64,000 nucleotides of DNA from Bacillota bacterium (GCA_023388515.1 JAEWGD010000005.1:26259-90258); one strand, 5' to 3'. Positions 17,270-64,000 are shown, numbered from the stretch's first letter. The notes: a model not told the origin generated them from the letters alone. Numbers and translations are program-made.

Positions 17270-17530
17270 GTTATTTTTTCACTGAATATACTTTTGCTTG
17301 TTTGATTTAGTATGATATGGTTCTTATTTTCTTTGTTGTCATTCCATCTACTTTCCGTATGGTAGAATTTAAATAGATTAAAAGAAGTTAGGGTAAACAA
17401 GAACAATACTTCGCTAAAATAAACAACCAAAACCACATTAAATGAAAACAAAGCAAACAAGAACCGACACTACATCTAGCAAGCAAAACGCATATTCAGT
17501 GACAAAAAAGCAAATAAACACCATAGTGAA
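17270..17530. repeat. dispersed repeat family, copy A (short palindromic form)
   Basis: The left arm cactgaatatacttttgcttgtttgatttagt...ttcttattttctttgttgtcatt matches the arm of the copies at 34296, 49341, 55690 and 63715. The right arm gcatattcagtgacaa is its reverse complement. The central 40-nt hairpin is missing. Confidence 0.5.
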
Positions 17531-17621
17531 AGCAAAACAATATAAAAAAACTGTGGACATTTTATTGAATTCATGCTATACTATTATCAATAATTATTAT
17601 TCACAGAAAGGAATTTAAGAC

Positions 17622-18035
17622 ATGATTCACGAAAAGTCATGTGGTGCTATTGTTTACCGTAAGTCACATGGAAACATAGAAATATTGCTAATAAAGCACG
17701 TCAATAGCGGACATTGGTCTTTCCCAAAAGGGCATATGGAAGCTAGTGAAACGGAAACGGAAACTGCTTTGCGTGAGATTAAGGAAGAAACAGATATTGA
17801 TGTTATTATTGACCCAACATTCAGAGAAACTGTTTCATATTCACCTAAAAAGGACACCCAAAAGGTCGTTGTCTACTTCTTAGCTAAAGCAAAAAACTTT
17901 GAGTACGTCGCACAAGCAGAGGAAATAGCAGAAATTCGTTGGGTTGACATCGGACACGCACTTTCGGTTCTCACTTATGAAAACGATAAAACCATTGTAA
18001 ATAAAGCTCGAACAGCTATTAGAGAAAAGGAATAA
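17622..18035 (+). CDS. NUDIX hydrolase
   Basis: Nudix box GHMEASETETETALREIKEETD (GX5EX7REUXEEXGU). Confidence 0.8.
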   Translation: MIHEKSCGAIVYRKSHGNIEILLIKHVNSGHWSFPKGHMEASETETETALREIKEETDIDVIIDPTFRETVSYSPKKDTQKVVVYFLAKAKNFEYVAQAEEIAEIRWVDIGHALSVLTYENDKTIVNKARTAIREKE

Positions 18036-18104
18036 GATAGCATATTAAAACGTGGTATCCGTAGAATTGCTTTGAAAAAAGTTAAAGACAATTGGCTAAT
18101 CACG

Positions 18105-60733: not shown

Positions 60734-60788
60734 ACATAACATATGTAATAAAAGGGTACTGATAAACACCGAAACTCATGGAGGTCTA

Positions 60789-63728
60789 ATGGAAAATAAA
60801 ATATATTCTCTGGGCATAGATGTTGGCTCAACTACTGTTAAAACAGTAATAATTGATGATAGCAAAAAAATAATTTATTCAAAATATGAAAGACATTTTT
60901 CTAAGGTAAAGGAAACTGTTAAAAGTCAGCTTGAAATTATTGTTGATGAATATAAAGATACAAAGTTTCATCTTGCAGTTACTGGTTCTGCGGGGCTTGG
61001 ACTTGCTGAGGGTGCAGAACTTCCATTTGTTCAGGAGGTTCATTCTGCATTTATAGGAGTAAAGGAAGCGTATCCCGATGCCGATGTGGTTATAGAACTT
61101 GGTGGTGAGGACGCTAAGATAATTTTCCTTACTGGTGGAGTTGAACAGCGTATGAACGGCTCTTGTGCTGGTGGTACGGGTGCGTTTATCGACCAGATGG
61201 CAACGCTTTTGGGGATTACTGCAAGCGAACTTGATAAACTTTCACTTAATGCAGAAAAGGTTTATCCCATTGCGTCAAGGTGTGGAGTTTTTGCAAAATC
61301 TGACGTACAACCGCTACTTAATCAGGGCGCAAGGCATGAGGATATGGCTGCGAGTATATTTCAAGCAGTTGTTGACCAAACTGTTTCAGGGCTTGCACAG
61401 GGTAGAACTATTGAGGGAAAGGTTCTGTTTTTGGGCGGACCGTTATCCTTCCTACAAGGACTTCGCAATGCTTTTGTGAAAACTCTAAGGCTTGATGAAG
61501 AAAAATCAATATTTCCTGAGCAAGCACCTGTTTTTATGGCGTATGGGTGTGCGTTGTTTGCTGAAAAAAGTGAAGATGTTTTTACGATAGATGAGATTAT
61601 AGGCAAGATTGAAAACGCTGCTGCTACTGATAGAATTATAACGGGCGAAAGGCTTTTCAATAGCCATGAAGAGTACGAGGAATTTATTGCAAGGCATAGC
61701 AAGAGTGATCTTAAATATGCTGATATTCAAACATATGAGGGCGATGCTTATCTTGGAATTGATGCTGGCTCTACCACGACAAAATTGGTGTTGATTAATG
61801 ATGATGGCGAATTGCTTTATCAGCATTATTCATCTAATAAGGGACAGCCTCTTGATAAAGTTGTTGATAAGCTTAAAGAGATTTATGAGATAAAAAACGA
61901 AAATCTTACAATAAAAGGCTCTGCTGTTACGGGTTATGGTGAGGAGCTTTTGAAGTCTGGGTTAGCAGTGGATTTAGGGATTGTTGAAACTGTTGCCCAC
62001 TTTAAAGCAGCATCTTTTTTCTGTCCTAATGTTGATTTTATTATTGATATAGGTGGACAGGACATTAAATGCTTTAAGATTAAAAATCATGTTATAGATA
62101 GTATTATGCTAAATGAGGCTTGCTCATCTGGTTGTGGTTCGTTTATTCAAACCTTTGCAGTTGCACTTGGTTTCGGGATTGAGGACTTTGCAAAGCTTGG
62201 ACTTTTCGCTGAAAATCCTGTTGATTTAGGCTCACGCTGCACTGTTTTTATGAATAGTAGCGTTAAACAGGCACAAAAAGATGGTGCATCAGTTGAGGAT
62301 ATTTCAGCTGGGTTGTCGTCATCTATTATAAAAAATGCAGTTTATAAGGTTATTCGAGCAAAATCGGTTGACGAGCTTGGCAGAAATATTGTTGTACAGG
62401 GTGGTACTTTCCTTAACGATGCTGTACTGCGTTCATTTGAAATGGAATTGGGCAGAAACGTAATTAGACCAGCAATTTCTGGACTTATGGGTGCGTTTGG
62501 TGCGGCACTTTATGCAAAAGAAAAGGTTCAACAAAATGCTATAAAACAGACTACTCTTATAAATAAAGAGGAGCTTGAAAGCTTTTCATATGCGTCAAAG
62601 AATTCACATTGCAGAGGTTGTACGGGTAATTGTAGTATTAATATTATTACTTTTAACGGTGGCAGAAAATATATTTCTGGAAATCGCTGTGAAAAGGGTG
62701 CTGGGCTTAAAAAGATTGAGGATAATTTAAACATATTTGATTATAAATATAAAAAGCTGTTGGAGATTGTTGAGGAGAAGCCAAAAAACCCTATTGCAAG
62801 AGTTGGCTTGCCTTTGGTTATGCATTATTATGAACAGCTACCTTTATGGCATACTTTTTTTAATGAGCTAGGTTTTGAGGTGGTTATTTCCGAGGAAAGC
62901 ACAAGGAATACCTACTACAAGGGGCAACATACAATTCCGTCGGATACTGTTTGTTATCCTGCCAAGCTTGCACATGGGCATATTGAGAGCCTTTTGGAAA
63001 GAGGTGTAGATTTCATATTCTACCCATGTATGAGTTATAATGTTGATGAGGGGATAAGCGATAATCATTATAATTGTCCTGTTGTGGCATATTACCCTGA
63101 ACTGCTGAAGGCTAATAATGTAAATCTAAGTGATGATAATTTTGTTCATCCTTATTTGGATTTGAACAGAAGAAAGCACGTTGTAGATGTAATGAAATCT
63201 GTTTTAGCAAAGTATAATGTTAAGAAAAAAGCTGTTGAAGATGCGTTGGATAAGGCGTTTGAGGCTATGGATAAATATATGCAAGATATTATAACAGAGA
63301 GTGAGAGGGTTATTAAGACTGCTAGGAGCAATGGCAAGAAAATAATTGTTCTTGTTGGTCGTCCTTATCATATTGACCCTGAGATAAATCATGGTATTCA
63401 TCAGCTGGTTACAAGTTTAGGCATGGCTGTTATTACGGAGGATAGTATTGCTCATTTAGGGAAAGTTCCTAAATTGAAGGTGCTTAATCAGTGGACATAT
63501 CATGCAAGGCTTTATACTGCTGCACAGTATGTTGTTACTCAGCCTGATATGCAGATGGTACAGCTTGTTTCGTTTGGTTGTGGGATTGATTCGATAACGA
63601 CTGATGAGGTGCGTTCGATTCTTGAGGGTGCGGGAAAGCTTTATACGCAGTTGAAGATAGATGAGATTAACAATTTAGGGGCAGCGAAGATAAGGTTGAG
63701 GAGTTTGGTTGCCGCTATTGATGGGTAG
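60789..63728 (+). CDS. fused 2-hydroxyacyl-CoA dehydratase activase-like protein (two BadF/BcrA/HgdC-type ATPase domains + DUF2229-like domain)
   Basis: Two ASKHA ATPase starts (SLGIDVGSTTVK and YLGIDAGSTTTKLV), Cys-containing segments, and a C-terminal CoA-enzyme-activase-associated region. Confidence 0.75.
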   Translation: MENKIYSLGIDVGSTTVKTVIIDDSKKIIYSKYERHFSKVKETVKSQLEIIVDEYKDTKFHLAVTGSAGLGLAEGAELPFVQEVHSAFIGVKEAYPDADVVIELGGEDAKIIFLTGGVEQRMNGSCAGGTGAFIDQMATLLGITASELDKLSLNAEKVYPIASRCGVFAKSDVQPLLNQGARHEDMAASIFQAVVDQTVSGLAQGRTIEGKVLFLGGPLSFLQGLRNAFVKTLRLDEEKSIFPEQAPVFMAYGCALFAEKSEDVFTIDEIIGKIENAAATDRIITGERLFNSHEEYEEFIARHSKSDLKYADIQTYEGDAYLGIDAGSTTTKLVLINDDGELLYQHYSSNKGQPLDKVVDKLKEIYEIKNENLTIKGSAVTGYGEELLKSGLAVDLGIVETVAHFKAASFFCPNVDFIIDIGGQDIKCFKIKNHVIDSIMLNEACSSGCGSFIQTFAVALGFGIEDFAKLGLFAENPVDLGSRCTVFMNSSVKQAQKDGASVEDISAGLSSSIIKNAVYKVIRAKSVDELGRNIVVQGGTFLNDAVLRSFEMELGRNVIRPAISGLMGAFGAALYAKEKVQQNAIKQTTLINKEELESFSYASKNSHCRGCTGNCSINIITFNGGRKYISGNRCEKGAGLKKIEDNLNIFDYKYKKLLEIVEEKPKNPIARVGLPLVMHYYEQLPLWHTFFNELGFEVVISEESTRNTYYKGQHTIPSDTVCYPAKLAHGHIESLLERGVDFIFYPCMSYNVDEGISDNHYNCPVVAYYPELLKANNVNLSDDNFVHPYLDLNRRKHVVDVMKSVLAKYNVKKKAVEDALDKAFEAMDKYMQDIITESERVIKTARSNGKKIIVLVGRPYHIDPEINHGIHQLVTSLGMAVITEDSIAHLGKVPKLKVLNQWTYHARLYTAAQYVVTQPDMQMVQLVSFGCGIDSITTDEVRSILEGAGKLYTQLKIDEINNLGAAKIRLRSLVAAIDG

Positions 63729-64000
63729 ATGCTCATTCGCCGCATGGCTATGTTTGTTTTTGTTATCGCTCTCTTTGTTGTCATTGAATATGCTTTTGCT
63801 TGTTTATTTTAGTGAAGTATCGTTCTTGTTTTCTTTGTTGTCATTCAATCTACTTTCCGTATTGTTAAATTTAATTGTGGGTGTTCATTTCTTTGTGCGT
63901 ACAAAGAAACGAACCAAAGAAAAACGCAGCTCAACGCCGCTGAGGCTTGGCACGCTCAACTAAAAACCAAAACAAAGACCGTTTTGGCTTTTAGGTCGCT
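63715..64000 (+). repeat. dispersed repeat family, copy E (arm-hairpin-tail form, truncated by window end)
   Basis: Near-identical to the copy at 34296-34650 from gctcattcgccgcatggct through the hairpin and tail. It begins inside the last codons of gene 60789-63728. Confidence 0.6.

Follow-up and report, generated by a model that had tools for sequence, protein, structure and literature searches.

Several families of short, non-coding repeats occupy the intergenic regions of bacterial genomes, and they form the background for the repeat that we describe here from a 64,000-nucleotide stretch of DNA assigned to a Bacillota bacterium (GCA_023388515.1 JAEWGD010000005.1:26259-90258; referred to in its full length as the window, GC = 36.8%). 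The pneumococcal BOX elements (boxA-boxB(n)-boxC) are modular, non-coding intergenic repeats with a variable number of ~45-60 nt internal units, which occur in both orientations and whose complementary end modules give a long stem-loop; to our knowledge they have no target-site duplication, no known transposase and no reported mirror-repeat or triplex core. Bacterial miniature inverted-repeat transposable elements (MITEs) such as Correia, RUP and Nezha are short, non-coding, multi-copy intergenic foldback elements with terminal inverted repeats that break assemblies and mark rearrangements, and the REP/BIME repeats and the REPIN doublets mobilised by RAYT are short extragenic hairpin repeats near gene ends, often in inverted doublets. 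A further group, the intrastrand-triplex repeats BoxC/PIT/TMECO of E. coli and other Proteobacteria, is attributed to Hoyne et al. 2000 as cited in Holder et al. 2015 (PMC4666352). These repeats have the block order CCCTCNCCC-N3-6-GGGNGAGGG-N3-GGGNGAGGG, which belongs to class II on one strand, while the complementary strand can give a pyrimidine-motif triplex assigned to class III; 3610 copies were counted in 262 proteobacterial genomes, in single and palindromic configurations, with stems more conserved than loops and with an excess of rearrangement between relatives at their loci (PMC4666352).

We identified five loci in the window that we interpret, with slightly better than even confidence, as copies of a modular, non-coding repeat that is interspersed in the chromosome of an uncultured Oscillospiraceae bacterium and restricted to its lineage, and whose conserved hairpin (H) is the local form of a triplex-type motif found across phyla. 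A sensitive self-BLAST of the copies against the window returned exactly five loci, at 17232-17560, 34280-34800, 49150-49710, 55680-56074 and 63708-64000 (c17, c34, c49, c55 and c63 below); the sole additional match, a weak one of 57 nt at 47550-47602, was not counted as a copy. All five copies listed in an earlier note on this DNA were thus real, and three of them extended beyond the coordinates given there. The 16-mer GGGTGTTCATTTCTTT had five exact occurrences in the window (34454, 49522(-), 63879, 55842 and 55866(-)), the last two being the two strands of the c55 hairpin. The arm motif TTTGTTGTCATTGAATATGCTTTT was found six times at ≤3 mismatches versus 0 expected, and the end motif GCTCATTCGCCGCATGG twice exactly versus 0.05 expected. 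Alignment of the window copies with those of a related metagenome-assembled genome (MAG) gave the order of modules within the unit: an end motif T (GCTCAYWCGCCGCWWGG), arm units, H, an optional tail, inverted arm units and an inverted T. Arm units are 55-60 nt long, start with GTTCTTGTTT.CTTTG and number one to three between T and H, and the tail, of ~190 nt, holds an internal T-like motif and two hairpins, hp2 and hp3. In the full-length copy L012 an inverted T at the far end creates 28-nt terminal inverted repeats, and a 55-nt arm unit is repeated 2.5 times at 96% identity; the number of units varies among copies, and the element measures 300-650 nt in the Oscillospiraceae genome.

The core of the element in the window reads GTTCATTTCTTTG-TGCGTA-CAAAGAAACGAAC, followed by a third purine tract, CCAAAGAAAAACG. 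Three blocks of 6-15 nt each (Y stem, R stem and second R stem) were present in c34, c49 and c63 as TTTCTTTG / CAAAGAAA / AAAGAAA(AA), and c55 had the first two only; loop 1 (TGCGTA, 6 nt) and loop 2 (CGAACC, 5-6 nt) lie within the 1-6 nt limit. Judged by its sequence, H fits the definition of a class II intrastrand-triplex motif (ITxF). The window's third tract is its own mirror image and is therefore uninformative as to whether it repeats the purine arm in mirror or in direct order. Modules with an asymmetric purine arm carry a third tract that mirrors the arm and does not copy it directly, as evidenced by four independent cases: L007b (arm CAAGAAAA, mirror tract AAAAGAAG), L002b (CAAAGAAAAG, AAAAGAAAC), L015b (AAAAAGAAAG, GAAAGAAAAG) and L043b (AGAGAAAA, AAAGAG). 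Mirror and direct arrangements were compared in matched pattern scans of viral contigs. The TTTTCTTG/CAAGAAAA scans returned 3 mirror matches, no direct match at the same spacing and none at a spacing of 3-12, and the TTTTCTTTG/CAAAGAAAA scans returned 7 mirror and 0 direct matches; all ten mirror matches look like members of the H family. Because the tract is a mirror rather than a direct repeat, it is unfit for a repeated protein-binding site or an alternative hairpin, and both the repeated-binding-site and the attenuator-like alternative-hairpin models of the third tract are disfavoured. A mirror homopurine tract beside its Watson-Crick partner is a predictive signature of an intrastrand triplex, and we infer that H may form one.

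In this geometry H resembles the BoxC/PIT/TMECO repeats closely: both consist of a Y stem, a 3-6 nt loop, an R stem, a short loop and a mirror R stem, both are multi-copy and intergenic with conserved stems and variable loops, both occur as singles or palindromic inverted pairs with no consistent relation to neighbouring genes, and the loci of both are unusually rearranged between relatives. The BoxC/PIT/TMECO stems are G/C-rich (CCCTCNCCC / GGGNGAGGG), whereas those of H are A/T-rich (TTTCTTTG / CAAAGAAA / AAAGAAA); H has an extra covarying outer stem of 4-5 bp that overlaps the second loop, and it is usually flanked by GC-rich hairpins. The known repeats are from Proteobacteria and Cyanobacteria, while H is found across phyla, including Firmicutes and Elusimicrobia-type MAGs, and H, a predicted triplex former, is embedded here in a modular element of 300-650 nt.

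The earlier note overlooked that the hairpin is not confined to this genome and belongs to a wider hairpin-plus-mirror-repeat motif. MAGs and viral contigs from unrelated phyla contain the pattern TTTCTTTG-N6-CAAAGAAA followed by AAAGAAA. Scans for the H core, which covered genomes, metagenomes and viral contigs, located it in MAGs labelled Endomicrobiales, Elusimicrobia, Gammaproteobacteria, Arenicella and GC-rich Oscillospiraceae, in sediment metagenomes and in the host flanks of proviral contigs, at GC contents from 0.35 to 0.71. The usual layout is a GC-rich hairpin, a variable outer stem of 4-5 bp, TTTCTTTG, a variable 6-nt loop, CAAAGAAA, the outer-stem partner, (C/A)AAAGAAA and GC-rich sequence. 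The stem of H was 96.7% paired over 21 distinct modules, compared with 46-59% in slid controls, and double-change cells numbered 43 versus 14.6 ± 2.8 in shuffles, with 0/500 shuffles as high; the outer stem of H therefore covaries. H modules in other phyla have housekeeping genes as neighbours and often follow gene ends. Inward-facing inverted pairs of H were found in L001, L002, L007, L008, L011, L015 and L021, where they form the limits of non-coding foldback elements of 190-560 nt, and L007 has perfect inverted termini of at least 27 nt. Foldback elements L002, L007, L036, L039, L041 and L051, from unrelated phyla, have in common an interior motif, CTGCGGAACTCGC-(short hairpin)-GCTCAAACAGTCC, which lies in the loop of a long A/T-rich hairpin (L007:280-330, 470-520) and which had no match in Rfam.

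The family is dispersed but lineage-restricted, and it is present in some relatives and absent from others. A scan of the hairpin core against one genome per species found six matches on five contigs of the Oscillospiraceae MAG CAZSZG01, three of them at contig ends; copies were thus present on at least five contigs of that MAG as well as in a second lineage (L028-L031), in keeping with the dispersed family that the earlier note had proposed. In the related MAG, the site orthologous to that of c63 (L005) is likewise occupied by a copy. Further relatives were found through homologs of the M20 peptidase and phosphoenolpyruvate carboxykinase (PEPCK) genes that adjoin c55 and c34. The L028-L031 lineage, at 88% identity, has a reversed tail-type copy 3' of M20, at the site that c55, a palindromic copy, occupies in the window, and its LysR ortholog in L028 lacks a copy at the 3' flank, where the window has c49. 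No copy was found at the PEPCK 3' flank of L065 (94% nucleotide identity) and of a lineage at 93% amino acid identity (L061-L064), nor in relatives at 70-74% identity (L032-L034, L046). Colinearity with L065, L061 and L028 ends at 34832, 34978, 49700 and 55676, and all four of these junctions adjoin a copy; c49 and c55 mark the two ends of the colinear block that runs from LysR to M20. In a Logan contig of the same strain, the assembly breaks off within c55.

Three copies are of the arm-hairpin-tail type. In c34 (34302-34796, + strand), T (34302-34318) and arm units (34319-34453) precede the H module (34458-34501, +), in which the pyrimidine arm, loop and purine arm occupy 34458-34489 and the third purine tract 34489-34501; the tail (34500-34644, +) follows, with T', an internal copy of the end motif (34500-34535), and with hp2 (34535-34565) and hp3 (34582-34644), DNA fold prediction giving hp2 a 14-bp stem at 34533-34567. 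The right limit of c34 is bracketed by the end of colinearity with L065 (34832). In c49 (49204-49698, - strand) the parts are a T-like end (49679-49696), H (49502-49533), the third tract (49490-49502), hp2 (49422-49456), hp3 (49343-49405) and a clear right arm (~49222-49245). The window end cuts c63 (63731-64000, + strand; T 63731-63747, H 63883-63914, third tract 63914-63926, hp2 63960-63994), and its remainder was read, to ~L048:13472, in L048, from ENA ERZ24910766 NODE_10 (309 kb), of which the window is part; the next 9.5 kb of NODE_10 beyond c63 held no further copy. On the right side of c63, just past the window end, lies a heptamer array, (AAGGGCA)x11 at L048:13327-13404, and L028:11470-11540 consists of GGTCAAG/GGGCAAA-type repeats; such heptamer microsatellites (L048, L028) stand in for the start of the right arm in some copies. 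The other two copies are palindromic, with no strand assigned. In c55 (55686-56045), a T-like motif (55700-55718) and a left arm (55725-55838) are followed by a perfect 18-bp hairpin H (55841-55882) and a right arm (55926-56032); c17 (17241-17537) has a left arm (17241-17371), a centre (17372-17414) and a right arm (17415-17537), the arms being 69.7% complementary over 132 nt.

Set against this anatomy, the earlier description needed adjusting in three respects. Both of the architectures it distinguished are present, but tail-type copies also bear a degenerate right arm (to ~49204 in c49 and ~34796 in c34). The hairpin it took to be common to the copies is shared by c34, c49, c55 and c63, whereas c17, a palindrome, is without H. 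The right arm of the palindromic copies, described as the reverse complement of the left, is indeed inverted, but with a complementarity of just ~70% in both c55 and c17; because of this divergence, an origin of the palindromic copies as recent fold-backs of the left arm was ruled out.

DNA folding of c55 gave a 19-bp stem at -21.7 kcal/mol (z = -11.5; RNA folding, z = -7.4), and the DNA fold z was -7.3 for hp2 and -3.4 for hp3. Pairing in hp2 and hp3 is maintained by compensatory changes: alignment columns 90/124 of hp2 are CG in 5 sequences, UA in 2 and AU in 1, and hp3 has two double changes in L028. These changes would suit a multi-copy structured non-coding RNA, a small RNA or an RNA triple-helix element read from the reverse strand, on which hairpin mismatches become G-U pairs and a pyrimidine-motif triplex would be possible, as pyrimidine-motif triplexes can form in RNA (PMC4666352). 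Consistent with a reverse-strand transcript, among the 9 unpaired cells of the outer stem, 7 have A-C or C-A on the forward strand and thus G-T/G-U on the reverse, and H modules have no forward-strand G-U pair; the A-C cells derive, however, from about three independent events, and hp3 shows the opposite strand bias, with its G-U pairs on the forward strand. A whole tail-type copy folded no better than its shuffles (z = -1.16), palindromic and H-less copies exist, sense and antisense placements relative to genes are roughly equal, and no promoter-plus-terminator unit was found in the element, the strong promoters lying outside it and serving downstream genes. Rfam at the gathering score returned only tRNA-Arg in the window and nothing in 9 loci, and the E-value mode gave only weak, far sub-threshold matches, mostly to miRNA models. 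We consider a structured RNA, which the earlier note had raised as its alternative, very improbable, and we continue to read the element as a DNA repeat.

All five copies are intergenic, and three of the five start 0-2 nt past a stop codon, as the earlier note had observed in outline. Copy c49, between Rce1-like and LysR genes, begins directly after the LysR stop codon (49699; 0 nt), c55, between the M20 peptidase and YlxM-Ffh, directly after that of the M20 peptidase (55685; 0 nt), and c63 begins 2 nt past the stop codon of a CoA-enzyme activase gene; c17 lies between the starts of divergent SecG and NUDIX genes, and c34 between the start of YabP and the end of PEPCK, antisense to both. The copies at stop codons are co-oriented with the upstream gene, modules of other phyla likewise often follow gene ends, T' together with the T-rich tract receives a terminator-like score on the reverse strand, and H, hp2 and hp3 are conserved as structures, all of which would be expected if the repeat were a REP/BIME- or BOX-like cis element that serves the host, for instance by stabilising mRNA 3' ends, by acting as a terminator or an insulator, or by binding a nucleoid or topology protein, and that owes its persistence to selection rather than to selfish spread. 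The position of c17 speaks against such a role, as does the mixed orientation of the family (sense in c49, c63/L005 and L003; antisense in c34, L010, L012 and L028), and the orthologous gene ends of close relatives lack the element. PEPCK retains a canonical intrinsic terminator of its own upstream of c34 (34901-34934(-), 14-bp stem plus T-run, kept in L065), so the repeat is not needed to terminate it, and BoxC/PIT repeats showed neither promoter nor terminator activity (PMC4666352). A host-serving element thus appears quite unlikely to us compared with a repeat that spreads on its own account.

The same flanks exclude a local segmental duplication, since the flanking genes are unrelated housekeeping genes, and copies are present on other contigs and in other lineages. 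Small hydrophobic protein genes (84-102 aa) on the T-rich strand of the three tail-type copies fare no better: the open reading frames (ORFs) at 34263-34559, 49375-49683(-) and 63709-63963 yield hydrophobic translations that resemble one another, but the ORFs share no start codon, one starts within the upstream gene, the frame is broken by indels between copies and palindromic copies cannot encode the same product. The coding role was rejected, and we regard duplication or protein genes, whose probability is negligible, as effectively refuted already in favour of a non-coding dispersed repeat.

With respect to mobility, the element is short and non-coding with terminal inverted repeats (28 nt in L012) and inverted arms (c17, c49 and c55), as expected of a MITE. 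As a foldback element with inverted ends that is multi-copy and intergenic, breaks assemblies and marks rearrangements, it resembles the known MITEs; it differs from them in its heterogeneous architecture and in having no target-site duplication and no parent insertion sequence (IS) that we could find. A classical MITE would be an IS deletion derivative, mobilised in trans by a DDE transposase that binds its terminal inverted repeats, with the repeated GTTCnTTTCTTTG-like motifs of the arms and H as binding sites. The size, the lack of coding capacity, the inverted arms, the termini of L012 and L007, the dispersal between genes in both orientations and the breaking of contigs at copies would all follow from this origin. 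However, no target-site duplication was present at any inspected end, no related transposase was found among the 30 of 57 window ORFs scanned or beside H modules, the copies are structurally heterogeneous rather than uniform, and a protein-binding site repeated in direct or inverted order would not give the mirror third tract. Nor do the MuA-like transposases found 2-3 kb from an H module in viral contigs L036 and L037 supply a parent, as they are prophage genes, neighbours rather than ancestors. They had suggested that H might be the end of a Mu-like transposable phage, but prophage ends placed through similarity to phage JBD93 ruled this out: the left ends (TGTGGGG...) lie 330 nt (L036:13300-13700) and 11 nt (L037:4600-4760) inside the module, which is therefore host flank. 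In both of these independent D3112/JBD93-like prophages the left end lies close to the H module and on the same side of it, a proximity that could be chance in element-rich genomes or a phage target preference for such structures. We therefore judge a classical MITE to be unlikely.

BOX offers a purely architectural likeness in its modularity, variable internal units, complementary ends, occurrence in both orientations and lack of a target-site duplication and of a known transposase; the elements here differ in host lineage, in their larger size and in the mirror-repeat core. REP/REPIN repeats share hairpins in inverted doublets that form a larger hairpin, extragenic and near gene ends, but H has a third mirror tract and no conserved GTAG head, and the elements are several times longer; no Y1_Tnp (RAYT) match occurred in the scanned ORFs and no GTAG-headed hairpin in H modules. 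BLASTN of c34 against plasmid and phage collections gave no match, and literature searches gave nothing relevant for the hairpin, for the linker sequences or for MITEs in Clostridia/Oscillospiraceae. A search for an autonomous version yielded a single candidate, two inverted H-type modules 4.5 kb apart in a viral contig of 71% GC (L043:4860-9500), which may belong to a composite or autonomous element; none of the long ORFs in the interval had a Pfam match. Because no target-site duplication or parent IS was found, we call the element a putative BOX/MITE-like non-autonomous repeat and not a proven MITE. The earlier suggestion of a MITE-like or REP/BOX-like family was therefore sound as to dispersal, orientation independence, non-coding nature, inverted arms and the absence of an IS match, and too strong as to the MITE label.

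Several points count against our interpretation of the loci as a mobile repeat with a triplex-type core. The linker is needed both by the covarying outer stem and by the triplex fold, so that the two cannot form fully at once, and the triplex of TMECO itself was shown in vitro and not demonstrated in vivo (PMC4666352). The inner 8-bp stem of H was set by the search patterns, and its invariance is partly ascertainment; these 8 bp therefore carry no information. Compensatory changes in palindromic DNA can also arise by template-switch correction without selection. The lack of any transposase or recombinase among the scanned window ORFs and next to H modules elsewhere, and of target-site duplications at the ends of L012, L007, L011 and L002, bears on a mobile repeat as it does on a MITE. 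The coincidence of copies with breakpoints is based on four junctions, and no filled/empty site pair with both flanks conserved was found, one flank being non-homologous in every relative found, so that the exact ends and an insertion event are putative.

Taking the element to be a lineage-restricted modular repeat, we propose that it is selfish or neutral non-autonomous DNA that would spread between intergenic sites, either mobilised in trans or through recombination or gene conversion among its copies. The core, prone to hairpins and triplexes, would adopt non-B structures in single-stranded DNA during replication or repair, and these in turn would cause stalling, template switching and illegitimate recombination. 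Such a mechanism would explain the palindromic, centre-deleted and microsatellite-bearing variants, the finding that related species can have different, oppositely oriented variants at one site, the copies at the ends of colinear blocks and the assembly breaks within copies. From these patterns we infer how the element spreads and that it may itself cause rearrangements. A broader reading, which we offer tentatively and think unlikely to hold, is that the A/T-rich hairpin-plus-mirror module represents the inverted ends of an undescribed cross-phylum class of small foldback elements, conserved at 35-71% GC and spread or maintained by a structure-specific step on the single-stranded DNA hairpin or triplex rather than by a DDE transposase, of which the Oscillospiraceae repeats would be one lineage-specific elaboration.

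Other features of the window were noted in passing. A 69-nt tandem periodicity (at least 11 units) at 13369-14358 falls in a 457-aa protein that combines BspA-type leucine-rich repeats with a C-terminal dockerin, which suggests a cellulosome-associated surface protein. Two tracts of 9-nt-period repeats lie at 20801-21021, where they encode collagen-like G-x-T triplets in a 132-aa Cys/Pro-rich protein that looks like a BclA-type exosporium protein, and at 30454-30629, where there is no clean ORF; 39-nt tandem repeats (32618-32799) lie within a 206-aa ORF (32449-33069(-)) with an N-terminal S1 RNA-binding domain. The type I restriction-modification genes at 21286-23340 are short (hsdS-like, 227 aa; hsdM-like, 311 aa; overlapping opposite-strand ORF) and look truncated or rearranged, and a 1302-aa protein at 25010-28918 carries RTX calcium-binding nonapeptide repeats, unusual for a Clostridia chromosome.

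If our interpretation is correct, intrastrand-triplex repeats, known mainly as the G/C-rich BoxC/TMECO, would gain an A/T-rich counterpart of the same geometry across distant phyla, and one that bounds discrete foldback elements. The mirror constraint, which is hard to explain by protein binding or plain hairpins, would make the relevance of DNA or RNA triplexes in bacteria in vivo testable with a defined 50-nt sequence. In uncultured Oscillospiraceae, the elements would break short-read assemblies and coincide with synteny breakpoints, and would therefore mark, and possibly drive, genome rearrangement.

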